From: a virus | Lineage: Duplodnaviria; Caudoviricetes | IMG/VR virus record: IMGVR_UViG_3300021959_000045 | Location: 1-56,998 of that record | Length of the DNA: 56,998 nucleotides | Reading direction: 5' to 3' (one strand) | Shown here: positions 6,211 through 49,710 of the stretch, piece by piece | Layout of the letters: the number at the start of each line of letters is the position of its first letter | How positions within the stretch are numbered: the stretch's first letter is position 1 | The notes under the pieces: generated by a model | What the model was told of the DNA's origin: nothing | Seen by the model: the letters and a program-made list of their open reading frames with translations, nothing else | Database searches by the model: none | Position numbers and translations under genes: made by a program

Positions 6211-6434
6211 TATAGTTTCTCTAATATCTGGGTTAACATGTGTTTGATATCGGCAACTTCATTTTCTAAATGGTCGACCTGAGATTCAAGTTTTAGTTTT
6301 TCTTCTCGAACTTCTTGCCTGCGTTTCTTTCTTTCGCGTGCCGTCTCAACTTCTTTTTTATTTATATTAATGATTGCACCAGTTTTAGAATCCCTTCCGA
6401 GACCCGTATGGCCATCTACTTTTACTAATTTCAT
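6210..6434 (-). CDS. Small conserved phage protein with C-terminal coiled coil
   Basis: 74-aa ORF coupled by TAATG overlaps on both sides. LxRDxxTGAIIN motif typical of marine T4-like phages. Confidence 0.8.
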   Translation of the reverse strand: MKLVKVDGHTGLGRDSKTGAIININKKEVETARERKKRRQEVREEKLKLESQVDHLENEVADIKHMLTQILEKL

Positions 6435-31668: not shown

Positions 31669-32565
31669 TTATTCCTCTGCAGCCAACTTGGCGAAGTATG
31701 ACATGGTGTCATCATCATCATCATCGTCATCATCTGTAGATGATTTGATTTCTGGAGCGGGTGCAACCTTCATTGCAGGCGCCGGTTCTGCTTTAAACTC
31801 TGGAAAATCAGACTGAACCGCCTGACCAAGTACCAGATGTAACCTTGCTTCTAGTTCAGCATAAGTCTTGTAGTTTTCAGGATCAGAGAACTCGTTCAGG
31901 TCATATAACTTATTGTAAATAGATTCGAGTTCTTCTTCACTTTCAGAGAGAGGTGAAGGTGAAGCAAACTCTGACTTATCATAATTACGATATCCTTCCA
32001 CATTACGAATCTTCAACTTGAACGAAGCGCCTTCCCAAAAATCATAAGGGTTCATTGGTTGTTCATCTTGAAATTGGGGTTGCATTACATCCATAATCTT
32101 GTCAAAGATTTTTTTACCGAAAACAAAGAGCATTACCTTGCCTTCGTTTGCTGGGTTTGCTGGGTCAGACTCGACAAGAACATTGGAGACGTAATGTAAA
32201 CGGCGCTTACGCTCACGAGCAACATCTTTGTCGCGGTCGTTACCAGAGTTCCACAATTTGCTGTTAGATTCTGATACAGGATCTTGTTGACCAATCGAAG
32301 TCAAAGACTTCTCGATATACCACTGACCAGTAGGTCCCTTAAAGCCATGATCCCAGTATCTTACCCATGGCAGTTCGTTACCTTCGGGTGCGGGTAAAAA
32401 ACGAAGAACAGCATAACCGTTTCCTGCTTTATCAACGGAAGGTTTCCATTGACGTTCATCAACGTAAGACTTGGTTGTCTTTTGTTGTGAACCGGCATCA
32501 CCGGCAGCTTCGACTAGTTTAGAGATAGAGTTAGCACGATTGCGCTTAAGATTTTCAAACGACAT
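31669..32565 (-). CDS. gp32: Single-stranded DNA-binding protein gp32
   Basis: DERQWKP.VDKAGNGYAVLRFLP, HGFKGPTGQWYIE.SLTSIG, acidic tail ending YFAKLAAEE. Start moved to ATG 32565 (AAGGA RBS). Confidence 0.95.
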   Translation of the reverse strand: MSFENLKRNRANSISKLVEAAGDAGSQQKTTKSYVDERQWKPSVDKAGNGYAVLRFLPAPEGNELPWVRYWDHGFKGPTGQWYIEKSLTSIGQQDPVSESNSKLWNSGNDRDKDVARERKRRLHYVSNVLVESDPANPANEGKVMLFVFGKKIFDKIMDVMQPQFQDEQPMNPYDFWEGASFKLKIRNVEGYRNYDKSEFASPSPLSESEEELESIYNKLYDLNEFSDPENYKTYAELEARLHLVLGQAVQSDFPEFKAEPAPAMKVAPAPEIKSSTDDDDDDDDDTMSYFAKLAAEE

Positions 32566-32635
32566 ATTTATTTCCTTGTATGTACAGTGTATTTTTAGTA
32601 TATTTAAGTTTATCCACAAAATTCATAATATAGAC

Positions 32636-32677: not shown

Positions 32678-32914
32678 TTACTCAAGTGGTGAAGCATCAC
32701 CGTCCTTCTCAAGGAAGTTTAGGTTTTGTGCTTCTACCGCAAGTTTGTTCTTGACGATTGGTGTGACATATTTTTTTATATCTTCAATCTCAAGGTTGTT
32801 TTTTTCACAAAGGTGAACGATAGCATCCATATAGGACAAACCATCGTATAATACAGCATCTTCAACCATCTTTGTAAATTTGTTTTTTGTTAACATTAAT
32901 CCTTCAAGATCCAT
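32678..32914 (-). CDS. gp33: Late transcription coactivator gp33
   Basis: F..MVE..V...LSYMDAIVHLCEKNNLEIE...K.KL..EA..LNFL. Start placed at 32914 (GGAG RBS). Confidence 0.85.
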   Translation of the reverse strand: MDLEGLMLTKNKFTKMVEDAVLYDGLSYMDAIVHLCEKNNLEIEDIKKYVTPIVKNKLAVEAQNLNFLEKDGDASPLE

Positions 32915-33398
32915 TTTCTTTTGCTCCATAAAATCCAATATCGTCGTAAAAATGCCCTTGGGTTCTTTTTATCTCGCCATTTTCATAAGCGTTAGCCACA
33001 ACTCTCCAGACTGTTTTGTGTTCTCGATTTTCACCATATCGAAAATCAGACCAGATCCCTGTACTCAAATAGTTTTGCATATTTTTCACATATGTTTCTG
33101 TTATCTGATACTCGTTCCTTTGAGACCTATCCTTTGAATCTTTCCAATATTTCATCCCATTAAGTTTTGTTTTCCAGATTTTTAACCAGTCCTTTACTTT
33201 TTTGGGTGACAAATAGTGATCATCGGGCAAATCACGGAGATTTTCTGGCAACGATAAGTTTTTAGACGGACCTTTGGCCTCTCTTGCCAGTTTAAGTCTT
33301 TCAACGGCTGCAGCCTTTTGTTCTGCTGACATTGGTTTACGTTTACTTCGGATTTTTTTACGTTTCGTTTCGTTATTAGGTTCTTCCCATTTGCTCAT
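32904..33398 (-). CDS. Conserved hypothetical phage protein, basic N-terminus
   Basis: 164-aa ORF; RKPMSAEQKAAAVERL..AR motif. Confidence 0.75.
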   Translation of the reverse strand: MSKWEEPNNETKRKKIRSKRKPMSAEQKAAAVERLKLAREAKGPSKNLSLPENLRDLPDDHYLSPKKVKDWLKIWKTKLNGMKYWKDSKDRSQRNEYQITETYVKNMQNYLSTGIWSDFRYGENREHKTVWRVVANAYENGEIKRTQGHFYDDIGFYGAKENGS

Positions 33399-33595
33399 AG
33401 ATTATCCAACCATTCTTTTTCCCCTACGTGAGTGGGGAGAGTGTCATCATCTAAAAGTTCGTTTACCAATTTTTGTACCCGATAAAGTTTTTGTTTTTGA
33501 TACCAAGTAGAAAAACCATCCATGTTTGGATCTTTAATATACGAGATCCAATTTAATATATTTTCTTCTACTGATTCATAACTTGCACTAATCAT
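33395..33595 (-). CDS. Hypothetical protein
   Basis: 66-aa ORF overlapping both neighbours. Confidence 0.7.
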   Translation of the reverse strand: MISASYESVEENILNWISYIKDPNMDGFSTWYQKQKLYRVQKLVNELLDDDTLPTHVGEKEWLDNL

Positions 33596-34364
33596 TTCTA
33601 TGCTCCTCGTTTATATCCACTATTGCGTCTAGAAGTGGTGATTCAATTGATATGTATCTTAAAGCTGCGATATCTTTAGGCAAACAGTGACCGCCAAACC
33701 CAAACTTACCATCAGGACCGGGCACTTGCGTGTGAGATCTGCCTATGCGAGGATCAATTGTGATCGCATCAACCATCTGATCAAAACCCTCAAACCCAAG
33801 GTCCTTATATATCTGATACATCTCATTGAAGAATGACACTTTTGTTGCGAGAAATGTATTCTCAACATATTTGGCAAACGCTGCTTGTTGCAATGAACAG
33901 TACTTAACCTCTTTTAATTCTGGTAATACAGGTTTAAACAGTTCATCCCAGAATCTAGGATCGTGACCACCATAAATTGCATAGGTTTGTTTCTCAAACT
34001 CTTCTAACGTGTTGCGGTTGATATTTGAACTACCTAGAAACTCGGGCGAAACAGTGAAACTACCTTCTCGGACACCAGCTTCCCAGTCTATCCATACGGG
34101 ATCAACCGCAGACTTGATGAGGTATTTAGTTGTTCCATACTTATCAAACACTTCTTCGACATGATCTGTGTTGCAAGAACCGTCTTCTCTCATAGGAGTC
34201 GCAACACAGACAACCACAGCGTCTGGTGGATCAACATGTTCATCACGGTAATAGTGGAAACCTTTAGCTGAATCATCAACAAAAACATCGACGCCATGAT
34301 GTTTGGTCAGCACATATTCTACCGCTTGACCAACAGGACCATAACCAGCTATTATAACTTTCAC
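33588..34364 (-). CDS. UDP-glucose/GDP-mannose 6-dehydrogenase family, short form
   Basis: GYGPVG Rossmann motif, VCVATP, IKS, SPEFL, KYVENTFLATKVSFFNE, DPRIG, GFGGHCLPKD. Confidence 0.88.
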   Translation of the reverse strand: MKVIIAGYGPVGQAVEYVLTKHHGVDVFVDDSAKGFHYYRDEHVDPPDAVVVCVATPMREDGSCNTDHVEEVFDKYGTTKYLIKSAVDPVWIDWEAGVREGSFTVSPEFLGSSNINRNTLEEFEKQTYAIYGGHDPRFWDELFKPVLPELKEVKYCSLQQAAFAKYVENTFLATKVSFFNEMYQIYKDLGFEGFDQMVDAITIDPRIGRSHTQVPGPDGKFGFGGHCLPKDIAALRYISIESPLLDAIVDINEEHRND

Positions 34365-36743: not shown

Positions 36744-37142
36744 CTAAAAAATGATCGTTACTAAATTCATCAATACAGCAGTACCAGACACGGCACTACC
36801 AATCATAATTGCTTTATCATTCCAAACACCTCCGACAAAGATCCAGCTACACGCTGCTATCAAATATGCTAATTGCCCAGCTGTTCCAAATCCTGCACTC
36901 ATTAGAAACACTCCGACGACGCCTGTTATAGTTGCAATCCACTTTACATAGCTGTCAATTGTGCCGGTAGGTGTAACCGGAGTCATGTCATCAACTTGAG
37001 ACTGTAGATCTTCCATCTCTTCTTTGAGACGTTTTTTCTCAGCGTTGAGTTCCATTGCCAAACGACCCGCTTTGGACATAGTACTTTCTTTATACTGTTC
37101 TTTTGCTTCGTCTCTAATTTCTAATGTTTTTTCTTTAACCAT
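36744..37142 (-). CDS. Hypothetical membrane protein with N-terminal coiled coil
   Basis: Three hydrophobic C-terminal segments. Confidence 0.75.
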   Translation of the reverse strand: MVKEKTLEIRDEAKEQYKESTMSKAGRLAMELNAEKKRLKEEMEDLQSQVDDMTPVTPTGTIDSYVKWIATITGVVGVFLMSAGFGTAGQLAYLIAACSWIFVGGVWNDKAIMIGSAVSGTAVLMNLVTIIF

Positions 37143-37439: not shown

Positions 37440-37817
37440 TTAGAACGGCCTCCCAAAATCAACATTAGACCAACCTTCACCATCGACCATCCAAGCAGTA
37501 CCACACTTCTCGTTGACGACAATATCACCAACAGAAACCGAATGCATTCGAGTGAACTTCTGAATGCAAGACCCTTCAGGACCATATCCGTTACCTACAT
37601 GGAACACGTCTTCGAGGGTATCAACACCAGTAACACGAGCAACCGAAGCGAAGTGATCTGACATCCACGATTCATAGTTCTTAGAACCACCCATGAACTT
37701 GACATCACGGTGGATAACAATCTCAGGAAAATCTCCAAAGTCGCCATCCCAACCAACTGAATTCAAGTGGTCTCGGGCTTCTTCTGATAAGTGAAACTGG
37801 TGAATTAAATATGACAT
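37440..37817 (-). CDS. YodL-like domain protein
   Basis: TLEDVFHVGN...MHSVSVGDIVV...WMVDGEGW resembles YodL-like LE.IF..FN / SLSVSDIV / YVD..GF. Confidence 0.55.
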   Translation of the reverse strand: MSYLIHQFHLSEEARDHLNSVGWDGDFGDFPEIVIHRDVKFMGGSKNYESWMSDHFASVARVTGVDTLEDVFHVGNGYGPEGSCIQKFTRMHSVSVGDIVVNEKCGTAWMVDGEGWSNVDFGRPF

Positions 37818-38008
37818 TATACAGTCCTCACAATGTAAGCGGGTTTAGTTGGATCAATTTTGATCTCAGGATTAGTCACTTCTGTCACTTCATCCCAGAT
37901 TTCTGCATTCTTCAATGCGTCAAACAGAAACTCTGAAACGGCGGCGTGACGCCCACGATTAGCAACATACTCAGCGTAGGTGTCAAAGTCAGTGATTAAG
38001 TCAGTCAT
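37817..38008 (-). CDS. Hypothetical early protein, 63 aa
   Basis: Start moved to ATG 38008, downstream of a promoter and a purine-rich RBS. Confidence 0.7.
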   Translation of the reverse strand: MTDLITDFDTYAEYVANRGRHAAVSEFLFDALKNAEIWDEVTEVTNPEIKIDPTKPAYIVRTV

Positions 38009-38035
38009 ATCTCTTCTCTCATTCATTAAAAACAT

Positions 38036-38064
38036 ATTATCGCATATATCTGAACATTTGTAAA
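38036..38064 (-). promoter_or_regulatory. Sigma70-type early promoter
   Basis: TTTACA, 17 bp, GATAAT with TGn extension. Confidence 0.65.
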
Positions 38065-38068
38065 GTGC

Positions 38069-38129
38069 TAAGTTATTGATTTTAAAGGGGTAAATATTAA
38101 AGAAAAAACCTTGTATAATCAATGACTTA
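38069..38129. promoter_or_regulatory. Two inverted IHF-consensus boxes
   Basis: AATCAATAACTTA (minus, 38081-38069) and AATCAATGACTTA (plus, 38117-38129) both match WATCAANNNNTTR. Confidence 0.6.
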
Positions 38130-38163
38130 CAATCGAATTTTTTACATGAATTTTGGGAATACA

Positions 38164-38379
38164 TTATATTCCAGATATTCCTCTAATCTCGGCTTTGGTG
38201 AGGTCTCGGAACTTACGACGAGACACGGACCACTGTTTCTTAGGAGACGAGAAGATTAACGCCTCATTAGAACCCTCTGGCACGTAGCCGATGAGGTTTG
38301 TGCCCTCGGTTAGGTATATGTGTGAGGGTACCCGATACTCGCACTTGTCCCACACAGTGATCTCCTGGCGCACTCTCAT
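38164..38379 (-). CDS. Hypothetical early protein
   Basis: 71-aa ORF, GGAGG RBS, ATGA overlap. Confidence 0.75.
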   Translation of the reverse strand: MRVRQEITVWDKCEYRVPSHIYLTEGTNLIGYVPEGSNEALIFSSPKKQWSVSRRKFRDLTKAEIRGISGI

Positions 38380-38756
38380 ACAAAAGCCTCCAATAGTCCA
38401 GAACGAGAGGGATGACGTAACTTACGCAACGCTTTTGCTTCGATTTCCCGAATGCGTTGTCCGTTTACGGAGAACTGCCGCCCGACTTCCTCAAGAGTTT
38501 GGTCGCTTGGAACACCTATTCCGAAACGTGATCGAAGGATTTTAGCTTCTCGTGGAGTTAACATACCTAACATTTTTTCAACCACATCTTTGAGTTCTTC
38601 GGTATCGAAGTTTTCCTCGTAGGTAAGTCCATGATTTTCTTCATAAAAATCACAAGATACAGCCGTGTCCAAAACTTGAGGAGTAGTTGGTTCATCTAAA
38701 AGGCGAACGCCGCGATAGGTTTTTCTATCTGGGTTATATGGTCTCATGTGATTCAT
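38376..38756 (-). CDS. Stand-alone sigma70 (RpoD) region 4 protein
   Basis: LTPREAKILRSRFGIG...TLEEVGRQFSV...RIREIEAKALRKLRHPSRS is nearly the RpoD C-terminus; no region 2. Start may be 38747. Confidence 0.9.
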   Translation of the reverse strand: MNHMRPYNPDRKTYRGVRLLDEPTTPQVLDTAVSCDFYEENHGLTYEENFDTEELKDVVEKMLGMLTPREAKILRSRFGIGVPSDQTLEEVGRQFSVNGQRIREIEAKALRKLRHPSRSGLLEAFV

Positions 38757-38779
38757 TCCTTATCGTTAATTACAAAGTA

Positions 38780-38808
38780 ATTTTCGCACAGAATGACGAG
38801 TTTGTCAA
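38780..38808 (-). promoter_or_regulatory. Sigma70-type early promoter
   Basis: TTGACA, 17 bp, GAAAAT with TGn extension. Confidence 0.65.
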
Positions 38809-38855
38809 TGGTTTAAACCATGAAATCTAGGAATACGTTATATTCCGCTTTTTCA

Positions 38856-39521
38856 TTAATTGGGGGAGCTCTCATAGAGTTCTACAGTTTCGATTAACTT
38901 ACCAATCCACTTATCTCTCGTTTCGATAAAGATTTGGGGGTCTTCATCGTCTACAGCGATGATGGTAACGAGTTGTTCAATGGGCATTCCAGTTCGCTCT
39001 TCCCACATGACAGCATATCCAGCCTCTTGACAGAAGTAGTTTTCGACATACTCTATTCGTTTGAGTTTTTTGGAGGTTTTAAAGTCAATGATTGATATCT
39101 TACCATCAAATTCAGCAACACAATCAACACGACCAGCAAGACGTAAATGATCGGAATAAAGTGGACATTCCTGACCATATACTTTTCCAATCCGTTCATC
39201 TAAAATATCTTTGACGGATAGGAAGTTTGAGATGATGTTTGGCATATACCCCGAAAGATACCCAGAATCGTTGTTTATATATTTTTCAATCAACTCGTGG
39301 ACAGCGGTTCCTCTCTGAGAGGCACGAAAAGAGATTTGATTAGCTTTCTCTTCACCAATTCTTTTTTTCCATTTCGCAATCGAATCTTTTGAAAGAATAC
39401 TAAGAACTGTAGTTATTGATGGGTATCGTGTGCCATCAGGTGTGGAGTACTTACGACCAGATTCTTCTGTAACCGCATTGAGATCATCATAACCAAGATC
39501 AATTTTTATATGTTCAAACAT
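38856..39521 (-). CDS. PD-(D/E)XK exonuclease
   Basis: YPSITTVLS, RGTAVH, E.PLYS..L.LAGRVDCV, IIDFKTS, QEAGYA. Confidence 0.88.
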   Translation of the reverse strand: MFEHIKIDLGYDDLNAVTEESGRKYSTPDGTRYPSITTVLSILSKDSIAKWKKRIGEEKANQISFRASQRGTAVHELIEKYINNDSGYLSGYMPNIISNFLSVKDILDERIGKVYGQECPLYSDHLRLAGRVDCVAEFDGKISIIDFKTSKKLKRIEYVENYFCQEAGYAVMWEERTGMPIEQLVTIIAVDDEDPQIFIETRDKWIGKLIETVELYESSPN

Positions 39522-40302
39522 TTTTTAATTTGCCCTTTCGAAGTCTTGCTTCGTAGGATCTCCTTTGTTTACGGTTAAGTTTAGAGAGTTCTTCTGATGA
39601 AAGAACTCTAGTTTGTATTGCTTCGTCAAGTTTCTTTTTTTCTAGTTTTTCTTGTTTTTTACTTTTATGAACAGCAATAGTTACATTTTTCCCTTGAGGA
39701 ATTTTTATTTCATCATGGTCATGATGTAGGATAAATTGTACTTCATTTTCAAACTCTTTAAATAAATGATACCATATTGGACGCCAGTTATTCAAGAGCC
39801 TATAATTATTTGAGTGAGACCTATCACTATTTAAGTAAACATCTGTAATAGAACGCATGTTGAAATCTAATATAGTATCGAATCCATACATGTGAATTTC
39901 TTTAGGTTTAAACTTCGTTGCAGCAAAGTGTGTAGCCATATGACCACAATTGAAGTTTGTGGCAGACATCGGGTCTCCTTCTGGTCCACAATACTTCGGA
40001 ACAGTCAGATAGAAATCTCGAATATTCTGAGCGTACTTTAAATAAAATACTGATTGACCAGGATCGTTCATCCAGATTTTAGGACGGTTACCCAAAACCC
40101 AACGAAACATGTCAAGATTTACATGACCTTCCGTTAGGGCCAGCATCATCTTAAAATCTACCATACATGTTGCATAAACATTTTCAATATGGAATGGGGG
40201 CATATTACAAACGAGCCTTGTTCCTGAAGGTTCGTTCATATCATCCCAAAAAACGGATTTATCTCCGTTACCTATAATGTGGACAACATCATTACTTCTC
40301 AT
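39514..40302 (-). CDS. Putative Maf/DUF115- or GT42-like transferase
   Basis: HIIGNG.S, CN, VD, NCGH.A, EIHMYGFD spaced as in the sialyltransferase-like fold. Confidence 0.5.
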   Translation of the reverse strand: MRSNDVVHIIGNGDKSVFWDDMNEPSGTRLVCNMPPFHIENVYATCMVDFKMMLALTEGHVNLDMFRWVLGNRPKIWMNDPGQSVFYLKYAQNIRDFYLTVPKYCGPEGDPMSATNFNCGHMATHFAATKFKPKEIHMYGFDTILDFNMRSITDVYLNSDRSHSNNYRLLNNWRPIWYHLFKEFENEVQFILHHDHDEIKIPQGKNVTIAVHKSKKQEKLEKKKLDEAIQTRVLSSEELSKLNRKQRRSYEARLRKGKLKNV

Positions 40303-40957
40303 TATACATCAATTTCCGTATCATTAACTTGCCTTTATATCCGGTCCAGTGCATCGCCAACTTGTTTGGATTATCGTGTCCGTCGTTTTCCAACTGAACC
40401 CTTAACCAGTTGTATATATTAGGTAACGAAACAATAGTTCCGATACGCAATATCGGATTATCACGTATTAGTGAATGAAGAGTTTCTTGATCTCCTTGTA
40501 TGGGGTTGTCAATACACGCTTGGGCCCAACTCGTTAAAATTTGAGGTTTATTCTTTATCGCAACCACACCACTGTTATGCCAAGTCTCGCCGGTTCGTAT
40601 TGACCAAGGTTTATCTTCAACCATCGCTAATGTTTTTTCTTCTGCATATCTAAACACTCCCGACATGTCACCTAAAATTTGAATATCAGTATCTAACCAA
40701 CACGCATATTCACTTTTTATTTTTAGAAGAGCTGCTGGTTTTAAAAACCAAGCCACTTTTTGTCCTTTTTTAATAGGAATGACATCGTCAAATCCACTAA
40801 CTTGATATGCCCAAGCACGTGTTTCTTCTGTTAATCCAAAGTCCATAAGAACAATGGGTGTGTCGTTATGTTTGAGGTAGTTTTTTAGAAACCAAGGCAA
40901 CATCCATTCTGTTTTATCGTCACAACCAGTAATAAAACATTTACTGTAAGATTTCAT
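40292..40957 (-). CDS. GT-A glycosyltransferase
   Basis: ITGCD, DFGL, WFLKP, WLDTD (DxD), NSGVV, GDQETL, HWTG. Confidence 0.8.
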   Translation of the reverse strand: MKSYSKCFITGCDDKTEWMLPWFLKNYLKHNDTPIVLMDFGLTEETRAWAYQVSGFDDVIPIKKGQKVAWFLKPAALLKIKSEYACWLDTDIQILGDMSGVFRYAEEKTLAMVEDKPWSIRTGETWHNSGVVAIKNKPQILTSWAQACIDNPIQGDQETLHSLIRDNPILRIGTIVSLPNIYNWLRVQLENDGHDNPNKLAMHWTGYKGKLMIRKLMYNEK

Positions 40958-41588
40958 AGTTCCTTCCCCCTTTCCAATTGTGTTTTGCTAGACACCCAGC
41001 TTCTTTTTGTAATGTCGTAAATGAATCGTTTGCCATAACCGGCCATGGGTAAAATTCCTGTAAAAAAGGAAATAATTGCCTTCGTAGAAAAATATCAGTC
41101 GGACCGGCCATTTCTTTAGCTGTTTCGATAAGAAGTTTTGCACCATCAGGTTTAAGTCGGTAGGCGTGTGCTCCTGGAAAGTATGGTTTAGAAGTTAACG
41201 GACCTACACCAATAAACATTGGTGTATTGTATTTTCCGTAACTAGGTTGACCCAAAGATATTATCTTATCATAATTTATATGTAAAGGCAAGTTATTTAT
41301 TGCAACAGCATCGTGTTCGAATATTTGATATTCAACATTGTCTTCGACGCATTTTTCCCAAAGAGTGTAGTGAGAAAGGAATGCTGATAAACCAGATTCG
41401 AAATATGAAAACTTTTCAATAAAATTTTTTGTAGGCAAACCCTTCTCTTTAAATAATTTTTGTGGATCGTCTTTGGGGGTAAACGCATCAAACATTTTAA
41501 CATTGTGACCGGGCATAGATTTAATACAACGTTCAGCCACTGCAACTGATTTTGGGTTCGACTTAATTGTTATAACAAATGATTTCAT
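40941..41588 (-). CDS. Glycosyltransferase family 25-like
   Basis: FVITI, FDA, AFLSHYTLWEKC, IFEHDA, GAHAYRL.P.GA..LI, PTD. Confidence 0.8.
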   Translation of the reverse strand: MKSFVITIKSNPKSVAVAERCIKSMPGHNVKMFDAFTPKDDPQKLFKEKGLPTKNFIEKFSYFESGLSAFLSHYTLWEKCVEDNVEYQIFEHDAVAINNLPLHINYDKIISLGQPSYGKYNTPMFIGVGPLTSKPYFPGAHAYRLKPDGAKLLIETAKEMAGPTDIFLRRQLFPFLQEFYPWPVMANDSFTTLQKEAGCLAKHNWKGGRNYEILQ

Positions 41589-41592
41589 GTGA

Positions 41593-42177
41593 TTACGTGT
41601 TTAATGTATTTTCTAAAATAGTATAACCGACATTTGCTTTTTCTCGAAAATTTATTCGCCACGGAGTTATACCAGAACAAAAACTTTCTGCGACACGATA
41701 TAATCTATCATCCGCTCTTCCAAACAATCTAGAAGTATCATGAAGAACAATGTACTTTTTAATAGTACTTTTATGTACTTCTAGTTCTTGTATCAGGTGA
41801 GCTGGTTGATGATTACTATCAATCAAAAGTAAATCGGTTGGACTCAAAGTTTTGGTATCAGTGGAAGACATTTCTTTAACAGTTAGTCGTATATTATTTT
41901 CTTTACAGTAATCATTAAATAAGTTTTCGAAGGGTCTCCATCGGTGCATATCTATATCGACTAAAGTTACAGACTTGGGATTAGTCAAACAGGCCGCGGC
42001 TGCACTTGCACCTTGATGTGTTCCAAGTTCTTTATAACTATCACACGACTTCATTAATCTTTGCATGGCATCATGTTGCCAACAATAGTCGATCCCGTGA
42101 GCCTCTTCGTGTTGTTTTCGTATTTCAGTATAAAATTCAGGTAATGTTTTTACATGGTCTAATTTGGCATTTATCAT
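41593..42177 (-). CDS. Class I SAM-dependent methyltransferase (Methyltransf_24-like)
   Basis: ELGTHQGAS, VDID, DLLLIDSNH, IVLHDT. Confidence 0.8.
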   Translation of the reverse strand: MINAKLDHVKTLPEFYTEIRKQHEEAHGIDYCWQHDAMQRLMKSCDSYKELGTHQGASAAAACLTNPKSVTLVDIDMHRWRPFENLFNDYCKENNIRLTVKEMSSTDTKTLSPTDLLLIDSNHQPAHLIQELEVHKSTIKKYIVLHDTSRLFGRADDRLYRVAESFCSGITPWRINFREKANVGYTILENTLNT

Positions 42178-42737
42178 TGATTGTTTCTCCTACAAACTAA
42201 AACTGTGCTTGTTTTACTTCCTAAAAATTTTTCAATAATAGTCATACCTTTACTTGTAATAAGACTTTCAATTTCATTTTGAGTAGCTAAAAGTGGATCG
42301 GCGGCTTCACAAACCGAATCTGATTCACTATATTCTAAATAAAGTACTCCGGAAGGAGATAATTGATCTTTCCACGTCATTATAGTTTTTTCTGGTTCTA
42401 TTGTATGATCAAAAGAATTTGAATACAATATGTCAGCTTTTCCTATCCATTCTTCTTTGGGAATAGTAAAATCATGTTGAATAGTCATTTCAAACTGAGA
42501 AGCCGTATCACTAATTTCGGTTCCGATAATGTATGCTTCAGGAAATCTTTTCTTAAAGAATTTTTGTTCAGCGCCATTTCTCGTTCCATGACATATAATA
42601 AAACCCGCAAAGGCACTTTTTTTACAGATAATTTCAATTACATTTTCTCGAACATAAACCCAATCTAATTTAATTTTATTAACCTTTGTTTGCCATTCTA
42701 CATAATCTTCGTAATTTTTATATTCATAAATTTTCAT
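42174..42737 (-). CDS. SAM-dependent methyltransferase-like protein
   Basis: ICHGTRNGAE, GTEIS, HDF, DILYSNSFDH, L.P.G.LYLE. Start moved to 42737 (TAATG). Confidence 0.75.
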   Translation of the reverse strand: MKIYEYKNYEDYVEWQTKVNKIKLDWVYVRENVIEIICKKSAFAGFIICHGTRNGAEQKFFKKRFPEAYIIGTEISDTASQFEMTIQHDFTIPKEEWIGKADILYSNSFDHTIEPEKTIMTWKDQLSPSGVLYLEYSESDSVCEAADPLLATQNEIESLITSKGMTIIEKFLGSKTSTVLVCRRNNQ

Positions 42738-43552
42738 TAATATATTCCCCACCTTGTCTCTTCTAGATTGGTGATTCTCCACAACTTATCATAATCGTAG
42801 TCATCAGCACCACGCAATTGTATATGCACAAATTTTGTATTTTCTGTTCTAGTATCTATAACAGGTCTTCGGGGACCAGTAGTTTCCGGCAAGTAATGCA
42901 CATAACTATTCCATCCAGAATCAAGGGCAGTCCATTCTAAATTAGCAACTTCTAACATAGCATGAAGATAACCTTGGTCGGACGCATAAAAACTATCAAT
43001 TCCAGCGGAGATAATGAATTTATAAAAGGTTTCAAATTTTACGAAATTCTTTCTGCAATATTCTCTCCCTTCTTTTGTGTACAACACAACACCAGAATTA
43101 TAAACTTTCATTAACCCATCTTTACGACGAGGCAACTCTTTATTGTATATGTTTTTTATTAAGGTGCCGAACCGTTCATCCGAAACATTGTTAATCCTGC
43201 CAACCGTATACTTCTTCCTCATATCGGGTTGTAACTTTTCTTCACAAAGTCCGATGTGTTTTATGGGTATGTCAAATATGTTTTCATCTAATCCGTCAAC
43301 TGGAAATATATCTGTGTCTAAGAAAAGTACATTATCATACTGTTCAAAGTATTCGTCATAAACCACTTTGAATTGTCCATAGTGTGGGGTAAACTTACCT
43401 AGATTTCTATTTTGTTTAATTAACCATTTGGAATCTTGTTCGAAGAGGTGTTCTGCTCCAATTTTTTTGGCATATTCCTTCATTGATTTCACTGAAGCTC
43501 GTGTTCCGGGCAAATCTTTGCCGTCATAATATTGGTATATTAGATTTTTCAT
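42737..43552 (-). CDS. GT-A glycosyltransferase (paralogue 1)
   Basis: MKNLIYQYY, YAKKIGAEH, YDNVLFLDTDIF, YNSGVV, DQGYL, WN, FVH. Confidence 0.8.
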   Translation of the reverse strand: MKNLIYQYYDGKDLPGTRASVKSMKEYAKKIGAEHLFEQDSKWLIKQNRNLGKFTPHYGQFKVVYDEYFEQYDNVLFLDTDIFPVDGLDENIFDIPIKHIGLCEEKLQPDMRKKYTVGRINNVSDERFGTLIKNIYNKELPRRKDGLMKVYNSGVVLYTKEGREYCRKNFVKFETFYKFIISAGIDSFYASDQGYLHAMLEVANLEWTALDSGWNSYVHYLPETTGPRRPVIDTRTENTKFVHIQLRGADDYDYDKLWRITNLEETRWGIY

Positions 43553-44451
43553 GCGAAATAACTATCGTAGGTTTCTTTAATGGCCGTTTCAAATGGTGTG
43601 AATTCATACCCAAACTCTTGATTGAATCTGGTTCCATCAATGGATTGATAAGGAATTTCTTTATAGTTTCCGGGCTTTTTAACTGTAATAGGTCCAACGT
43701 CATGTTTCAAAATTTTAGTTATATTTTTAGCAAGGTTACTAATAGATATAGAAGAATTGGAACTTAAATTATAAGCCTGATGTTTGGTCTTTTCAGTTGC
43801 TAAAATATAAATCATTTCAGCGACATCTTTTACATAGATGAAATCTCGAAATATATTATCACCTTCTTCGTGTACAGGAATACCTTTACCTTCCCGAATA
43901 CATTTCATAGCTTTAGGAATAATTCTACTATAAGAATAATCTCCCGCACCAAATATGTTAACTGGGCGCACACTTACAATGTCCATAAGATACTGTTTTC
44001 TATAAAAATCACAGAACTGTGCCGCCAAGACTTTAGAAAATTCGTAGGGTGAGTTAGGATTTAGTGTAGCATTTTCCTTGGTAGGCACCTCTTCTTGAAA
44101 ACCATATACCTTGTCGGTTTCAATCACGATAGTTTTTTCACATCCAGCAAACTTTGCTGCTTCTAAAATAGAAGCAGTACCTAACCCATTAATCATAAAA
44201 GAATTAAAGGGGTCTTTTGCACAATCAGCAACAATAGGTTTACCTGCAATGTGAATTATTTGTCCAATGAATTTTTCACTGACAATTTGAGAAACTTTAT
44301 TTTTATCCAGAATGTCACAAGCATATTGTTGATATTCGCAGTTCTGTCTAATAGACCTTGAAAGACCAAATACTTTGTGACCTTTATTAATAAAATACTT
44401 TGCGGTGTGGTCGCCTAAAAAACCAGAGTGCCCAGTAATAAGAACATTCAT
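43549..44451 (-). CDS. NAD-dependent nucleotide-sugar dehydratase/epimerase (CDP-glucose 4,6-dehydratase-like)
   Basis: TGHSGFLG, TDKVYG, YEFSK (YxxxK), RPVNIFGAGD, RDFIYVKD. Confidence 0.88.
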   Translation of the reverse strand: MNVLITGHSGFLGDHTAKYFINKGHKVFGLSRSIRQNCEYQQYACDILDKNKVSQIVSEKFIGQIIHIAGKPIVADCAKDPFNSFMINGLGTASILEAAKFAGCEKTIVIETDKVYGFQEEVPTKENATLNPNSPYEFSKVLAAQFCDFYRKQYLMDIVSVRPVNIFGAGDYSYSRIIPKAMKCIREGKGIPVHEEGDNIFRDFIYVKDVAEMIYILATEKTKHQAYNLSSNSSISISNLAKNITKILKHDVGPITVKKPGNYKEIPYQSIDGTRFNQEFGYEFTPFETAIKETYDSYFA

Positions 44452-45107
44452 ATTAAACCCCTTCTCACTAATTCGTTATAATTTTCTATTTTCTTTCTTT
44501 TTGGTCCGGTTGGTGTTACCTTTGTTCGAATATGAATAAGAGCAGCGTTTTCTATTCCTTCTCTATAAGAACAATGACACCATTTATATTCATCAGGCAG
44601 CGTTGAGAATTTTAGGCCTGATAAATGCGCTAATCGATGCATACACCCCTCATCATAGTACGATGAGTTAAATTTTGCCAGTTCATTTATATCAATATTT
44701 TTACGCAATCTTTTCCTTTCTTCTTTGTTAAATCTGTATATTGCACCGCCCCAATATGGGTATGACATACTACCCAAAAGTGGGAATTTTCTAACCAAAC
44801 TGCGGTGTAACGATTGTTGTATGCTTGCATACATTCCAATGCCTTCAACATCAGTAAAGATGTTTTCTTTTTGGTTTTTTCTTTCGAACATATCAATGTC
44901 TAACATAACAACCATATCATAATCATCATACTTATCGGAGAGTGCACACAATTTTTGAGACTGAACAGAAAGTTCTTTTCCCATTGGTTGTCCTAACACC
45001 AATTCATATTCACCACCACATTTCTTAGCATAGTTAGAAATGTTATCGACAGATAGTTTTTCTAGTTCACCAAGTTCACCATGATAGTGTTGTAAAATTA
45101 TATTCAT
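44448..45107 (-). CDS. GT-A glycosyltransferase (paralogue 2)
   Basis: MNIILQHY, YAKKCGGEY, YDMVVMLDIDMF, DEGCM, LIHIR. Confidence 0.72.
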   Translation of the reverse strand: MNIILQHYHGELGELEKLSVDNISNYAKKCGGEYELVLGQPMGKELSVQSQKLCALSDKYDDYDMVVMLDIDMFERKNQKENIFTDVEGIGMYASIQQSLHRSLVRKFPLLGSMSYPYWGGAIYRFNKEERKRLRKNIDINELAKFNSSYYDEGCMHRLAHLSGLKFSTLPDEYKWCHCSYREGIENAALIHIRTKVTPTGPKRKKIENYNELVRRGLI

Positions 45108-45112
45108 GTATT

Positions 45113-45847
45113 TTAACCTTCTTTAATAAATTCAACCATCACATTTTTATCGTGATTAACCCATCCATGCCAATTTCTATGATTGTTGCCGAAGGGTTCA
45201 CTTATGATTTGATGCCAACCATATTCAGCCGCTCGCAATCTTTTTTCTGTATGAAGTTTTGTTACATCATCATGATTGAAAAATGAACGAGGATGAATAA
45301 TCAATTGGTCTAGTATCCACTTTCTCATTTTTGGATTGTTAACATAGTTTGATTCATAAAGTTTTTTAAACTGTGGTTTTATGGTTACTGCAAAACAATT
45401 CGCTCTATTGTTTTCATAAGAATCTACAAGATAGGGTGTAAAATCTACTCTATTATTATTCCATATAAAAGCATCAAATCTTGTTCTGACTATTATATCA
45501 TATTTTTCTTTTAGAGTGTTTACTAACATTGAATGAATTAAAATTTGTTTTGTGTGATGTTTAGTCCATTCTATTTTATTAGCTCTAATGACCCAAGCTT
45601 TTGTTTCTTCCCAATCTTTAGATGAAAAATCTTTAATATCCATATAAGGGTGGTATAACATTACTGGCTCTTGAAAAGTTTCACACTTATCGTCTGGAAA
45701 ATGTTTATAGAATAGTTCTTCCCTACCTTTCCAAGTGGCGTAATAAAAATCCGCATCAGGAAATTTTTCTTTTAAAACCCGATTGTTTCTTACCTGAAGA
45801 TTATATCTACTTTCAGGAACACCAGATACGCACACCGCTACTTTCAT
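45113..45847 (-). CDS. Hypothetical glycan-island protein, possible transferase
   Basis: MKVAVCVSG, F..TW, YDIIVRTRFD motif seen in LPS/capsule-locus proteins. Confidence 0.6.
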   Translation of the reverse strand: MKVAVCVSGVPESRYNLQVRNNRVLKEKFPDADFYYATWKGREELFYKHFPDDKCETFQEPVMLYHPYMDIKDFSSKDWEETKAWVIRANKIEWTKHHTKQILIHSMLVNTLKEKYDIIVRTRFDAFIWNNNRVDFTPYLVDSYENNRANCFAVTIKPQFKKLYESNYVNNPKMRKWILDQLIIHPRSFFNHDDVTKLHTEKRLRAAEYGWHQIISEPFGNNHRNWHGWVNHDKNVMVEFIKEG

Positions 45848-46582
45848 TTATTTTGTTCCCTGAAAGTATATCCATTGTTTGTGGCTACACCCAGGCCCGG
45901 TGGGTCTTAAATCAGTAAGAATATCTTTGAACCCAATCTTTTCTAGATCTCCAATCACTTGTTTTTCATTAGTAACACTAACATCATGAAATCCATTTGT
46001 AGTTCTCGCTGAGAAATCGTTATCATAATAACCAGCCGTCATTATAATGTTGTTCCTAATATAGGTCATATAATTTGAACTTGTCACATCTCTTCCACCA
46101 TATCCCATCTGGAAACAGATATGACCGCCTGGTTTGAGAACTCTGTAAGCATCTTCTAAAATAGAATACCTAATATCGTAACTGGCGATGTGTTGTAAAC
46201 AGATAACACTAAACCAAACGTCATAAGATTCATCATCAACTGGCGTGGTTTTTCCATCACATACGTATAAGTTACTGTCCTCTATACCAGCACCTTTTAA
46301 ATTTATCTTTGCGTTTTCTATATTTGTTTTTCCAATATCAACACCATCAATTCTTTTAAATCTATTATTAAACTTAATGATGTTTCTTCCTGGGCCAGTT
46401 CCGTAATCTAAAGCAACCAAATCGTTAGTGATAAAATTTTTAAACAGAAAAGTATCATAATCTTCCCATAAATTATGTTTATCATATCCACCAACAACCG
46501 GATTTTTATTTTTTAAAGACCATTTAGAAGCCGCATTTTCATAATGATCGAATTGCATTTTTAGATATTTGTCTATCGACAT
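45848..46582 (-). CDS. Class I SAM-dependent methyltransferase
   Basis: ALDYGTGPGR, GVDI, CDG, YD..FSVICLQHI, RVLKPGG. Confidence 0.9.
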   Translation of the reverse strand: MSIDKYLKMQFDHYENAASKWSLKNKNPVVGGYDKHNLWEDYDTFLFKNFITNDLVALDYGTGPGRNIIKFNNRFKRIDGVDIGKTNIENAKINLKGAGIEDSNLYVCDGKTTPVDDESYDVWFSVICLQHIASYDIRYSILEDAYRVLKPGGHICFQMGYGGRDVTSSNYMTYIRNNIIMTAGYYDNDFSARTTNGFHDVSVTNEKQVIGDLEKIGFKDILTDLRPTGPGCSHKQWIYFQGTK

Positions 46583-46584
46583 TT

Positions 46585-47940
46585 TTATTTTTCCTTTATA
46601 AAATATTCTAAATCTTCAGGTGTTCCCAATCCCCACATTTCTTTCGCAGTACTTGTTCGAATCTTTTTACCGTCTGCAATTGCTTCGTTGAACACAGGAC
46701 ACACATAGAACTCATTGTTGACACGAATATCTTTCTCGATCATCTGTTCTGCATACTTGACAAAATCGGAACCGTGTTTCCAATAATAATAACCTACGGT
46801 TGCACAATCACTGATCGGATTCTTCTCTGCAACTTCTGTTACTAAACCCGTTTTCATATCTACGGCAGCATAAGACCACTTAGGATGTGTTGCTTTAAAT
46901 ATAACGATACCACCATCAGCATCAGACTCTTGCATATCGTACATGAACTGAACTGGATCCCAATCAACCCATTGATCACTATTGGCAAAGAATAAAGGTG
47001 AATCGTTGTCAATATATTCTTTTGCTAGTAATGCGGTACATGCGGCACCTTGAGTCATCTCATCCACTTCTATTATCTTACAGTCACGACCATCAGGAGA
47101 AATCAGGGGCAACATGTTTTCGAGGTGAAACTTTTCACGGTGTTCTTTCTGCACTACGAAGATATAATTGGCATCAAGTCCTAAGTTTTCGACTACAACC
47201 TGAATCATAGGTTCGCCGTTAACATCAATTAAAGGTTTGGGAAATGTGTATCCTGCTTGTTGAAATCGAGAACCCGCACCAGCCATCGGTATGAGTACAT
47301 TTAATTTTTCATCACTCCAGTAGTTTTTAATTTTTTCTGATTTTAATTTAGGCATAATATTTTCTCTAGTCACTTCTTTAGGACTCTGTACTCTTATATA
47401 TGAAGCTCTTGATCGTTCTGCGGCAAGAAGGCCGGGTGGAGAGTCTTCAATGATTACTGTTTCTTCGGGAAGACAACCCATCATCGACATCGCTTTCCAG
47501 TAAATTTCCGGATGAGGTTTTGAGTTCTTTACATCTTCATTCGATAGAATCACTGAACAATATTCTATAATACCAGATTTCGCAAGCGCTGTCAAGACAG
47601 TTCTGCGGATACTGTTGGAACACACACCAATAACATATCCTTGATTTTCCAACTCTTTGAAAAGTCCTAAGGCATGTGTGTTGATTGGCAGGGTGTGCAT
47701 CATTTTAACCGTTTCTTTTTGTTTACGGTCAAAAATAGATTCATGGAGTTCTATAGGAAGGCCTTTAGATTCCGTTAACATCTGAAGTTTTTCTTTGGTC
47801 TTTCTACCATCATAAATGTTACGGTGTTCTTCGAGAGTGATAACATATTCTTCAGGAAGAGCTTTGTTCAAAGACACGTAGTGAATATTTTTTGCGTCGA
47901 CTAAAACACCATCCAAATCAAATAAAACTAATTTAATCAT
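46585..47940 (-). CDS. HAD-family phosphatase fused to a sugar-phosphate nucleotidyltransferase
   Basis: N-terminal FDLDGVLVD...KPHPEIY...EDSPPG; C-terminal IPMAGAGSRF...PKPLI...NSDQ...VAEK...LGTPEDL. Confidence 0.88.
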   Translation of the reverse strand: MIKLVLFDLDGVLVDAKNIHYVSLNKALPEEYVITLEEHRNIYDGRKTKEKLQMLTESKGLPIELHESIFDRKQKETVKMMHTLPINTHALGLFKELENQGYVIGVCSNSIRRTVLTALAKSGIIEYCSVILSNEDVKNSKPHPEIYWKAMSMMGCLPEETVIIEDSPPGLLAAERSRASYIRVQSPKEVTRENIMPKLKSEKIKNYWSDEKLNVLIPMAGAGSRFQQAGYTFPKPLIDVNGEPMIQVVVENLGLDANYIFVVQKEHREKFHLENMLPLISPDGRDCKIIEVDEMTQGAACTALLAKEYIDNDSPLFFANSDQWVDWDPVQFMYDMQESDADGGIVIFKATHPKWSYAAVDMKTGLVTEVAEKNPISDCATVGYYYWKHGSDFVKYAEQMIEKDIRVNNEFYVCPVFNEAIADGKKIRTSTAKEMWGLGTPEDLEYFIKEK

Positions 47941-47963
47941 TTTGAAAGGATATTCTTCATTTA

Positions 47964-48362
47964 TTATTCCCCTGTTAAATAATACATTTTTCCCTTTTTA
48001 ATCACTTCAGGGTTTCTTTTTCTAATATATTCGTTTTTCGATTCACCTTTATATAGGTCACGATTAACAGAGAAAGAATTTTCACATTCAGCACCTTCAA
48101 AATCATTAGGCATATACTCATGCCATGAGGGACATATCATCTGACCCTTTTTTAATTCTAAAAATTCGGTCATCATTCTGTAGGTTGGAATAGCGTTATA
48201 ATTTGTTACAAACACGTTGGGAAATCTTGCGTGATTAATACCGTTCATCACGTTCTTTGCAAAAACAATTTGGTACTTGGGGTCATCTTTATATTTAAAA
48301 TACAGTGGGTGCCAAAACGGTTTTAAAGTGTTATCACCTGTAACTACTATGGTTACTTCCAT
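47964..48362 (-). CDS. Hypothetical protein, possible degenerate GT fragment
   Basis: 132-aa ORF inside the glycan island. Confidence 0.6.
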   Translation of the reverse strand: MEVTIVVTGDNTLKPFWHPLYFKYKDDPKYQIVFAKNVMNGINHARFPNVFVTNYNAIPTYRMMTEFLELKKGQMICPSWHEYMPNDFEGAECENSFSVNRDLYKGESKNEYIRKRNPEVIKKGKMYYLTGE

Positions 48363-48964
48363 AATTTTTTAGCCTCAACTACGGTAGAATGCATCGCACG
48401 AATTTGACCAGGCGTATCGATATTATTAAAATCTGCCAAGGAACTTTTGCCATATTCATACTCTTTTACATTCTGAAAACCAAGAGATGATAAAGTGTCA
48501 ATCATTTCTTGTTTGCCCCAGAGATATAAATGTTCGCCCTTCTGATAAAGAAGACCTAACGCAACCTGTTCTTGAATTCTTTTGTTTTTATGACCAGCAG
48601 CACAGAACCTTTCTTGAACAATGTATCTTTGATAGTAATGTTTAACAAACGGATGATTAGATAAATCTTCTTCCCCAATCAACCACTCAACAACATCATA
48701 TGATGGCCACACAGTTCGAATCACACCGCCCGGTTTCAACACCCTCATAACTTCTTTGAATATGTTCACGCCTTGATACTTGTATAGGTGTTCAATAAAA
48801 TGTTCTGAATACACTCCATCATAAAAATTATCGGGAATTCCTTTGATGGGTAGGTTAGTTAGGTCATGAAGTTTTACCGATTTGTCACCATAATTACTAC
48901 TGACGTTTACAGCGTCCCAATTCAAACCACGCTTACGATTCGCGGCCAATTCTAAGAACATCAT
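48353..48964 (-). CDS. Methyltransferase type 11-like
   Basis: HDLT.LP, YDGVYSEHFIEHL, RVLKPGGVIR..P. Confidence 0.82.
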   Translation of the reverse strand: MMFLELAANRKRGLNWDAVNVSSNYGDKSVKLHDLTNLPIKGIPDNFYDGVYSEHFIEHLYKYQGVNIFKEVMRVLKPGGVIRTVWPSYDVVEWLIGEEDLSNHPFVKHYYQRYIVQERFCAAGHKNKRIQEQVALGLLYQKGEHLYLWGKQEMIDTLSSLGFQNVKEYEYGKSSLADFNNIDTPGQIRAMHSTVVEAKKLWK

Positions 48965-49710
48965 ATACACATTCCTCTTTTTTCCAGTTTAGGCATATTA
49001 AATTTATGACGTGCCAAGAAGTGATTGATATATCCATCAGGTTGACCTGGCCATTGATAGGGAAGTCGATTCCATTTATTGTCTAACTCTGTCACTTTAA
49101 AAACAGATTGTGATAACTGAAGATTGATATACATCTGTTCAGTGTATCTTGTGTGTATTACATAATCATCTAGCGAAGTAAAATGTTCTCGGGCCTTCTC
49201 CCTTCCCTGTTTTGACCAAAGTTGTAAACCGCCGTTCATATATCTCCACCTTTCCTGTGGGTATAATGATGACTTAGGGAACATCCAATCGTCACCAAAA
49301 AGTTTTTTACCATAGGCGATAATACCTCTTTGGTCAAGGGGTACATACATTACCTTCGACAACCATCCACCCATCTTTTGATGAACACCAACTTCATGTA
49401 CCATTGCGACATCTTCGATTGGTATATCAAAAATATTTTCTCGGGTGGTGATAAGCATATCAAGGTCAAGAACCAAAATATTATCGTACTTGGAGAATTG
49501 TGAGTCGTAGTGAATCCTACTGGAGTCTAGTCTGGGGTCAAGGTCCGGAAAGAACCTATCGTGAAGCAACATGTAATCAGCACCACAAAGTTCTGCATAC
49601 TTTTTAGTACACCTAGAACCTGTCTTAGCCCATTCAGGCATTTCAACACCGCCTAGATGAGTATCATTCGCCTCATAGGGAATGTAGTACTGAAATATTA
49701 AATTTTTCAT
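48961..49710 (-). CDS. GT-A glycosyltransferase (paralogue 3)
   Basis: MKNLIFQYY, YAELCGADY, YDNILVLDLDML, MNGG, EQMYIN, WN, NHF. Confidence 0.78.
   Translation of the reverse strand: MKNLIFQYYIPYEANDTHLGGVEMPEWAKTGSRCTKKYAELCGADYMLLHDRFFPDLDPRLDSSRIHYDSQFSKYDNILVLDLDMLITTRENIFDIPIEDVAMVHEVGVHQKMGGWLSKVMYVPLDQRGIIAYGKKLFGDDWMFPKSSLYPQERWRYMNGGLQLWSKQGREKAREHFTSLDDYVIHTRYTEQMYINLQLSQSVFKVTELDNKWNRLPYQWPGQPDGYINHFLARHKFNMPKLEKRGMCI

Follow-up and report, generated by a model that had tools for sequence, protein, structure and literature searches.

A phage-borne C-terminal fragment of RpoD with an altered −35 recognition helix in a marine T4-like virus

We analysed a 56,998-nucleotide (nt) stretch of viral DNA, the IMG/VR record IMGVR_UViG_3300021959_000045 (its full length is called the window below), which carries on its minus strand a small gene for a fragment of the sigma factor RpoD (sigma70). 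Sequence comparison indicates that this gene was captured from the 3′ part of a proteobacterial rpoD, from which it holds the end of region 3, region 3.2 and region 4, and that it has been kept and reshaped as a separate gene by a small clade of marine and estuarine T4-like (Kyanoviridae-like) phages. In the encoded protein the residues that read the bases of the −35 element are replaced, while those of the protein-binding surfaces are retained. We tentatively propose that the fragment is a −35-blind occupant of the beta-flap site, which would compete there with region 4 of the host sigma70. The gene is defined as follows.

38376..38756, minus strand: coding sequence of the sigma fragment, 126 amino acids (aa) from the first ATG; residues 9–62 are a rewritten remnant of the end of RpoD region 3.1 and of region 3.2, and residues 63–126 are region 4.

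The initial annotation, made from the DNA letters, had described a 126-aa open reading frame (ORF) with a sigma70 region 4. Its existence is borne out by the ORF listing, by Pfam and by a phmmer search of the PDB, with the start probably three codons later. Specifically, an ATG at 38747 gives a product of 123 aa. The motif AAGGA stands 9 nt upstream of this ATG and directly abuts the first ATG, and the database protein for the window's gene, like four homologues, is 123 aa long; for these reasons 38747 is most likely the true start and the product a 123-aa protein. The protein matches the Pfam family Sigma70_r4 (PF04545) over residues 63–115 with 45.9 bits against a cut-off of 24.1 (E = 3.9e-12), and PHROG 351, 'RNA polymerase sigma factor', at E = 1.1e-20. 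Its best PDB matches are the C-termini of RpoD proteins (phmmer, E about 1e-23), and the ungapped match of query residues 36–125 to chain residues 521–610 sets the numbering used here, in which query residue i is E. coli sigma70 residue i+485. The AlphaFold2 model, built from a 53-row alignment, is confident for residues 49–122, with helices at 49–61, 65–75, 85–91, 96–111 and 117–122 (predicted local distance difference test scores of 83–92), and is disordered over the N-terminal 48 residues. Foldseek superposes the model on region 4 of sigma-A, present in chimeras, with a root-mean-square deviation of 1.1–1.3 Å over 68–71 columns. By both profile and fold, the protein is a member of the Sigma70_r4 domain family. 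At E ≤ 1, Sigma70_r2 was found nowhere in the 57-kb record, which represents about 28% of the genome. The protein starts inside region 3 and thus lacks region 2, and for this reason is not a sigma factor. We also considered the gene as the tail of a full-length sigma gene split at this locus and rejected this, since the record holds no region 2 and the upstream neighbour is a PD-(D/E)XK exonuclease gene.

Within region 4, the recognition helix is altered.

38445..38465, minus strand: altered recognition-helix codons, N98 (38463–38465), G99 (38460–38462), Q100 (38457–38459) and E104 (38445–38447), the equivalents of sigma70 T583, R584, E585 and Q589.

The helix reads VNGQRIREIE here and VTRERIRQIE in RpoD, that is, T583N, R584G, E585Q and Q589E. 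The PDB alignment thereby confirms the replacement of TRERIRQIE by NGQRIREIE reported in the initial annotation, and with it the retention of F563 (F78), L607 (L122) and F610 (F125). We counted residues per column in an alignment of the 8 family members with 45 bacterial sequences, which has 64 region 4 columns. Position 584 is R in 45/45 bacterial sequences and G in seven of the eight phage members, the exception being P0004 with R. Position 585 is E in every bacterial sequence and never E in the family (Q, K, G, G, N, N, N, D), where it is the most variable of the 64 columns, and position 589 is Q in 45/45 bacterial sequences and E in 5/8 members. At eight region 4 columns with at least 90% conservation among the bacterial sequences, 75% or more of the phage family departs from the bacterial residue; four of these changes are conservative (V558I, M561L, V582I, I587V), one is mild (S609A) and three are radical (E574K/A, R584G, E585x). 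Since both base-reading residues fall among the 3–4 radical changes, for which a post hoc chance estimate is roughly 0.003–0.006, the pattern in the helix is unlikely to be due to chance. The part of PMC2613000 at hand assigns to R584 and E585 specific base contacts at −31 and −33, and describes E585Q and R584C as relaxing specificity and R584A as altering the preference at −31. The protein-binding side is unchanged in the family: LTPREAK(I)LR(L/S)RFGI, EAKALRKLRHP, L607 and F610 are all kept, and the residues of helix 1, helix 2 and helix 5 stay as in RpoD. It is residues in and near these three helices that hold the beta-flap, according to an excerpt of PMC2988021, in which F563Y is also said to weaken AsiA binding. 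A protein that keeps its protein surfaces while dropping or changing base reading would fit these sequences.

Region 4 does not stand alone, as first thought, since a rewritten region 3.2 with a shortened finger precedes it. Likewise, the initial annotation saw likeness to RpoD in the last 65 aa; the likeness of region 4 is real, but the restriction is not, because tblastn against bacterial genomes and 'viral' contigs carrying bacterial rpoD aligns residues 9–126 collinearly with the RpoD end at 42–48% identity (53–58% for residues 36–126). Such collinear matches over residues 9–126 were obtained in 596 of the 600 bacterial stretches examined, and the counterpart in RpoD is its last ~120 residues. 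In RpoD, the N-terminal half has its counterpart in the last helix of region 3 plus region 3.2, and it aligns as KTYRGVRLLDEPTTPQVL----DTAVSCDFYEEN, with a 4-residue gap at the finger tip; the region 3.2 finger is 4 residues shorter than that of RpoD and has lost the acidic run at its tip. The two halves differ in their patterns of conservation. Bacterial rows compared with one another have a mean identity of 87% in region 4 and 62% in the N-terminal half; for phage against bacterial rows the values are 66% and 22%, and for members of the phage family 81% and 85%. The N-terminal half thus appears to have been rewritten after capture and to be now the most constrained part of the protein. With 85% identity within the family against only 22% to RpoD, this half probably serves a separate function.

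We then delimited the family. In a search of 5.8 billion proteins, the best 120 of the 5327 hits contain eight members, namely P0001 (the window's protein), P0002–P0006 at 68–82% identity, and P0008 and P0009, which makes six full-length members and two fragments; P0006 is encoded on a 30-kb contig. Residues 1–62 alone as query returned six proteins among 8 candidates, the same full-length set. All six full-length members are intact ORFs of 123–130 aa. A metagenome scan yielded two short loci, L082 and L083, and codon alignments of the window's gene with these loci gave ratios of nonsynonymous to synonymous substitution rates (dN/dS) of 0.24, 0.31 and 0.29, with a significant synonymous excess (Fisher p 1e-6, 9e-5 and 9e-4), which indicates that the gene is under purifying selection. 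As to the question raised at the outset, whether the homologues show systematic change or random decay, the answer is systematic change: six ORFs are intact, dN/dS is 0.24–0.31, R584 is lost in 7/8 members and E585 in 8/8. The family is very rare. A DNA search of a phage collection gave no close relative, IMG/VR contigs gave rpoD-like matches only, at most 65% identical, and the complete related genomes of Pelagibacter phage HTVC008M and phage C48C1 contain no match to the protein.

Two groups of matches were set aside. Vibrio phage matches (59/91 records) were rejected as relatives of the fragment, the one examined being a sigma factor of ~600 aa. Of the short 'stand-alone' matches, many of them 107–109 aa long, the 9/9 inspected carry the canonical TRERIRQIE; five of these nine (107–109 aa) begin at the internal Met of METPIGDD, the other four are ordinary RpoD C-terminal pieces, and all nine were rejected as family members and read as truncated-contig artefacts. 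Separately, the hit P0007 (167 aa, on a 1040-nt metagenome contig) contains region 4 twice in tandem, with a DFIED-type linker between the copies and the canonical TRERIRQIE in each; it could be a chimera of the assembly or a genuinely duplicated sigma tail.

The donor lineage is blurred. Identity to RpoD is flat, at 42–58%, across alpha-, beta- and gammaproteobacteria and Myxococcota. A quick maximum-likelihood tree was built from 80 bacterial rows and 6 phage rows, without the fragments P0008 and P0009; it unites the family in a single clade (support 100) whose stem amounts to several changes per column, the median end branch being 0.027. The clade is placed on the gamma+beta side (Shimodaira–Hasegawa-type approximate likelihood-ratio test, SH-aLRT, 98), a placement that we do not trust given the long branch. 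Because of this very long stem branch, the capture from rpoD appears to be old.

These observations can be assembled into a proposed mode of action. The fragment would be expressed early from its TTGACA-type promoter and would settle on core RNA polymerase at the beta-flap/RNA-exit site that is usually filled by region 4 of host sigma70; we infer this occupancy because the helix 1, 2 and 5 residues are kept. A polymerase bearing the fragment would no longer tell −35 boxes apart. Transcription from host promoters and from the TTGACA early promoters of the phage itself would be turned down, and promoters without −35 contact, namely extended −10 promoters and gp55-type TATAAATA late promoters, would still be usable. 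The outcome would be the same as that of AsiA inhibition in T4, achieved with a borrowed piece of the target. Consistent with the feasibility of flap occupancy, T4 gp33 binds the flap tip without DNA reading and represses basal transcription, and a gp55–gp33 fusion competes with the sigma70 holoenzyme, as stated in the portion of PMC2988020 available. AsiA itself (PF09010) was detected in none of three records, the window and the two complete related genomes, and a Pfam scan of the sigma-fragment protein at E ≤ 1 returned Sigma70_r4 only and no AsiA.

The flap site has a second candidate user in the same record.

32678–32938, minus strand: gp33 homologue (E = 6.5e-20), directly upstream of gene 32 (31669–32619), as in C48C1.

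With gp33 of C48C1 ('late promoter transcriptional regulator') as query, the only match in the record at E ≤ 10 is 32702–32905, and the sigma-fragment protein, judged by its sequence, is not gp33. The idea that the fragment replaces gp33 was rejected as unlikely, since the phage has this separate homologue. Five TATAAATA motifs occur in the window, all on the minus strand and just upstream of four structural (late) genes and of gene 32, a count that is not above chance; there is no such late motif at the sigma-fragment gene. In the leader of gene 32, an early-type TTGACA-17-TAATAT site overlaps the late TATAAATA.

Several points weigh against a −35-blind flap occupant. As a free domain, the fragment would be up against a region 4 held in place by the remainder of sigma70, and the phage also has gp33, a user of the same flap site. 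The region 3.2 remnant, 22% identical to RpoD and devoid of 4 residues and of the acidic finger tip, may no longer fit the RNA exit channel. All of the basic residues R554, R562, R586, R588 and K593, which we take to be DNA-backbone contacts, are retained, suggesting that DNA contact still matters. The family is very rare and absent from the two related genomes searched, so the gene is an accessory gene and not a core takeover device. Finally, the sigma70 mutants E585Q and R584C/A are described, in the part of PMC2613000 consulted, as relaxed in specificity with function not abolished, and because of this 'relaxed reading' describes the fragment as well as 'no reading'. The earlier view of a protein that keeps its protein surfaces and drops or changes DNA reading is in line with the sequences and partly supported.

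The main rival explanation is that the fragment is the second piece of a split sigma, in which region 3.2 and a sequence-blind region 4 would serve a gp55-polymerase, or a sigma70 with displaced region 4, and would act positively at promoters without a −35 box. T4 gp55 and gp33 are described as a split sigma with a flap-bound, non-reading piece (PMC2988020, in excerpt), the retained basic residues would permit non-specific upstream DNA contact, and late-type TATAAATA promoters are present. However, the flap role is already filled by the gp33 homologue (E = 6.5e-20), gp55 is not seen in the record, which covers about 28% of the genome, and the related genomes searched or compared are without the sigma-fragment gene. 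As the region 3.2 finger is also shortened and its acidic tip lost, we consider a split sigma unlikely.

Less likely again is a decoy for region-4 binders, be it an Rsd-type anti-sigma, activators touching residues 593–600, or a host or phage region-4 factor. The stretch EAKALRKLRHP is invariant in the family, and K593, K597, R599 and H600 within it are presumably activator contact sites; lost DNA reading would keep such a decoy off the chromosome. F563, important for AsiA binding in the excerpt of PMC2988021, is kept as well. On the other hand, there is no candidate partner, with no AsiA match in the window or the two relatives, a lytic phage would have little obvious gain from titrating host activators, and the strongly conserved N-terminal half is left unexplained.

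The intact helix-turn-helix fold (AlphaFold2, Foldseek) and the retention of R586, R588 and other basic residues would also suit a DNA-binding regulator of the helix-turn-helix type that works independently of RNA polymerase and whose target is changed or relaxed. We regard this as improbable: isolated region 4 binds DNA weakly, the specificity position 585 varies among close relatives (Q, K, G, N, D), which argues against a conserved new target, and no repeated operator-like motif was found besides the promoter and hairpin repeats. A non-functional remnant of accidental capture of host DNA can hardly be reconciled with the data. The rarity of the family and its place in a variable region would suit such a remnant, but 6/6 full-length copies are intact with dN/dS of 0.24–0.31, significantly below 1, family members share 85% identity over the N-terminal half, a promoter-like site and a ribosome-binding site belong to the gene, and the very long stem branch implies an old capture.

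The gene lies in a compact two-gene unit bordered by repeats, with these features.

38819..38846, minus strand: upstream copy of a 28-nt repeat with hairpin GGAATATAACGTATTCC, just past the exonuclease stop and before the promoter, forming a stem-loop and early-promoter composite.
38780..38808 (read 38808..38780), minus strand: sigma70-type promoter-like site, TTGACA-17-GAAAAT, with TG before the −10 and 10/12 consensus positions.
38164..38379, minus strand: 71-aa ORF of no known family, whose ATG overlaps the sigma-fragment stop (ATGA).
38145..38172, minus strand: downstream copy of the 28-nt repeat with hairpin GGAATATAATGTATTCC, at the end of the two-gene unit, followed by a promoter-like TTTACA-17-GATAAT at 38064..38036.

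The promoter-like site stands 33 nt before the 123-aa start, and by this site the sigma-fragment gene would be an early gene. The window holds four TTGACA-N16-18-nAnAAT sites, all on the minus strand, against 1.41 expected; in the region, 7 promoter-like sites were found against 8.7 expected, which is not above chance; for these sites, as for the late motifs, only their strand and placement carry information. L082 conserves the −10 region TGCGAWAATTAC and a TTGCCA −35, unlike L083. The claim that the gene has its own promoter is thus supported by the consensus match but tempered by its conservation in only one of the two other loci and by the region's site count. In L082, a short hydrophobic ORF (MDKDLKAVIAGGVG...) at about 206–310 separates the sigma-fragment gene from the shared promoter; the window has no such ORF.

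The two 28-nt copies form the direct repeat D1 (86% identity, spacing 674). Each contains the exact GGAATATAAYGTATTCC hairpin, with 2 exact sites in the window against 0.5 expected, and promoter-like sites with TGCGAWAAT follow each hairpin repeat. A stem-loop and early-promoter composite, the feature of PeSL cassettes, is therefore present at both borders, and the hairpin-bracketed two-gene unit looks like a PeSL-type mobile regulatory cassette. Contigs of 3 metagenome runs join about 38044–38083 to about 38819–38949, as if the unit were absent, with shorter sides of 24–27 letters at 80% likeness; short contig joints of this kind often come from repeats or other organisms, and we take them as a weak hint of absence or mobility of the unit via the repeats. 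Downstream, a 115-aa ORF (37817–38164, minus strand) runs with its first ~45 codons across the hairpin repeat and the promoter-like site at 38064..38036; its real start is probably near 38029 (MFLMNERRD...), giving about 70 aa.

The ATGA overlap between the sigma-fragment gene and the 71-aa ORF occurs in the window, in L082 and in L083, and the two are probably co-transcribed. The 71-aa ORF has no Pfam or PHROG match, and homologues exist in 6 Vibrio phage records. In one of these, Vibrio phage Va1, the homologue lies beside dihydrofolate reductase and thymidylate synthase genes and without a sigma fragment, which weakens a functional link between the two products. A complex prediction for the pair scored 0.01 against a mark of 0.32, giving no answer either way. 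When the window is compared with L082 and L083, the proportion of synonymous differences is 0.84–0.86 (saturated) in the 71-aa gene and only 0.30–0.34 in the sigma-fragment gene (38376–38747), in which the synonymous substitution rate (dS) is 0.38–0.45. This contrast suggests mosaic histories of the two genes or an extra constraint on the sigma-fragment DNA.

Combining the cassette with the fragment leads to a bolder reading, which we consider rather doubtful. A mobile early cassette would supply, in trans, a replacement of the sigma70 C-terminal module that places region 3.2 in the RNA exit channel and caps the beta-flap. Hybrid holoenzymes of host domains 2–3 and phage region 3.2–4, with relaxed −35 reading, would then form the early-to-later switch of marine T4-like phages that have no AsiA/MotA.

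The record is an IMG/VR contig estimated at 28% of its genome. It encodes T4-type baseplate and tail proteins, gp32, PhoH, ThyX, ribonucleotide reductase and sugar-nucleotide enzymes. Its gp6-like protein is nearest to those of phage C48C1 (39%), the Methylophilales Melnitz phages (37%) and Pelagibacter phage HTVC008M (33%); C48C1 and HTVC008M are classified under Kyanoviridae. A 4-kb stretch of the window is present in runs labelled as estuary, marine or seawater metagenomes from 10 studies, with 18 rows that share half or more of its sampled words, one of them possibly the source. Contigs from several runs cover the gene, among them a 1026-nt piece with 0 differences (X2) and a piece spanning 38080–38562 with 42 differences (X17). 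Elsewhere in the window, at 1–12571 (minus strand), ORFs of 2070 aa (open at the window start) and 2045 aa adjoin the baseplate genes, with TATAAATA upstream of the first; they are presumably fibre or other virion proteins. At 33588–34364 and 39514–48970 (minus strand) lie genes for a UDP-glucose dehydrogenase-like protein, a nucleotide-sugar epimerase, methyltransferases and a haloacid dehalogenase (HAD) hydrolase fusion, together with several family-less ORFs, and this sugar-nucleotide/transferase gene run may serve DNA or cell-surface modification. A 132-aa protein at 36744–37142 (minus strand) matches DUF6552 (36.2 bits, cut-off 27) with its C-terminal half, which is hydrophobic.

The comparison with known systems starts with the C-terminus of proteobacterial RpoD itself, with which the fragment shares ~66% identity in region 4, the fold, and the helix 1/2/5 and 593–600 residues. 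Unlike RpoD, it has no regions 1–3.1, carries other residues in place of R584 and E585, has a finger shorter by 4 residues, and is phage-borne, with an early-type promoter-like site and a very long branch. T4 gp33 would be functionally akin, being a small phage protein on the flap tip without DNA sequence reading in the available part of PMC2988020; however, gp33 has no sigma sequence similarity and carries a clamp-binding tail, whereas the fragment is a true sigma4 homologue. T4 AsiA resembles the fragment in the expected outcome, as −35-dependent transcription is lost and extended −10 promoters escape (PMC2988021, in part). AsiA binds and remodels region 4 of sigma70, whereas the fragment would replace region 4 on core. 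Thermus phage gp39 and Xanthomonas phage Xp10 P7 likewise exemplify polymerase takeover at the sigma4/flap interface, but as far as the accessible text of PMC3950348 and PMC3985653 goes, they are unrelated folds that reposition or displace sigma and not sigma copies. Mycobacteriophage D29 gp53, from what can be seen of bioRxiv 10.64898/2026.10.05.756390, is a sigma-like phage protein competing for the sigma site; it resembles domains 2 and 3, and the fragment is the complementary region 3.2 and domain 4. The PeSL cassettes of T4-like phages, as outlined in the portion of PMC4122927 at hand, with PMC2839356 as a further listed reference, resemble the present unit in carrying, on either side of a small accessory unit in a variable region, a stem-loop with an early promoter behind it; here, by comparison, there are two copies only, and mobility is hinted at by short metagenome joints.

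We found no phage-borne sigma70 C-terminal fragment described in the full-text literature searched, in which subscription journals are largely uncovered. Phage takeover at the sigma4/flap interface is a known kind of system. The known examples, AsiA, gp33, gp39 and P7, are all unrelated small proteins. If the proposal holds, a copy of region 4 kept by a phage under purifying selection and stripped of its two base-reading residues would solve the problem in another way, with a piece of the target that acts as a dominant negative or as a swap-in, and would bear on the shutdown of host and early transcription in marine T4-like phages that have no AsiA/MotA.

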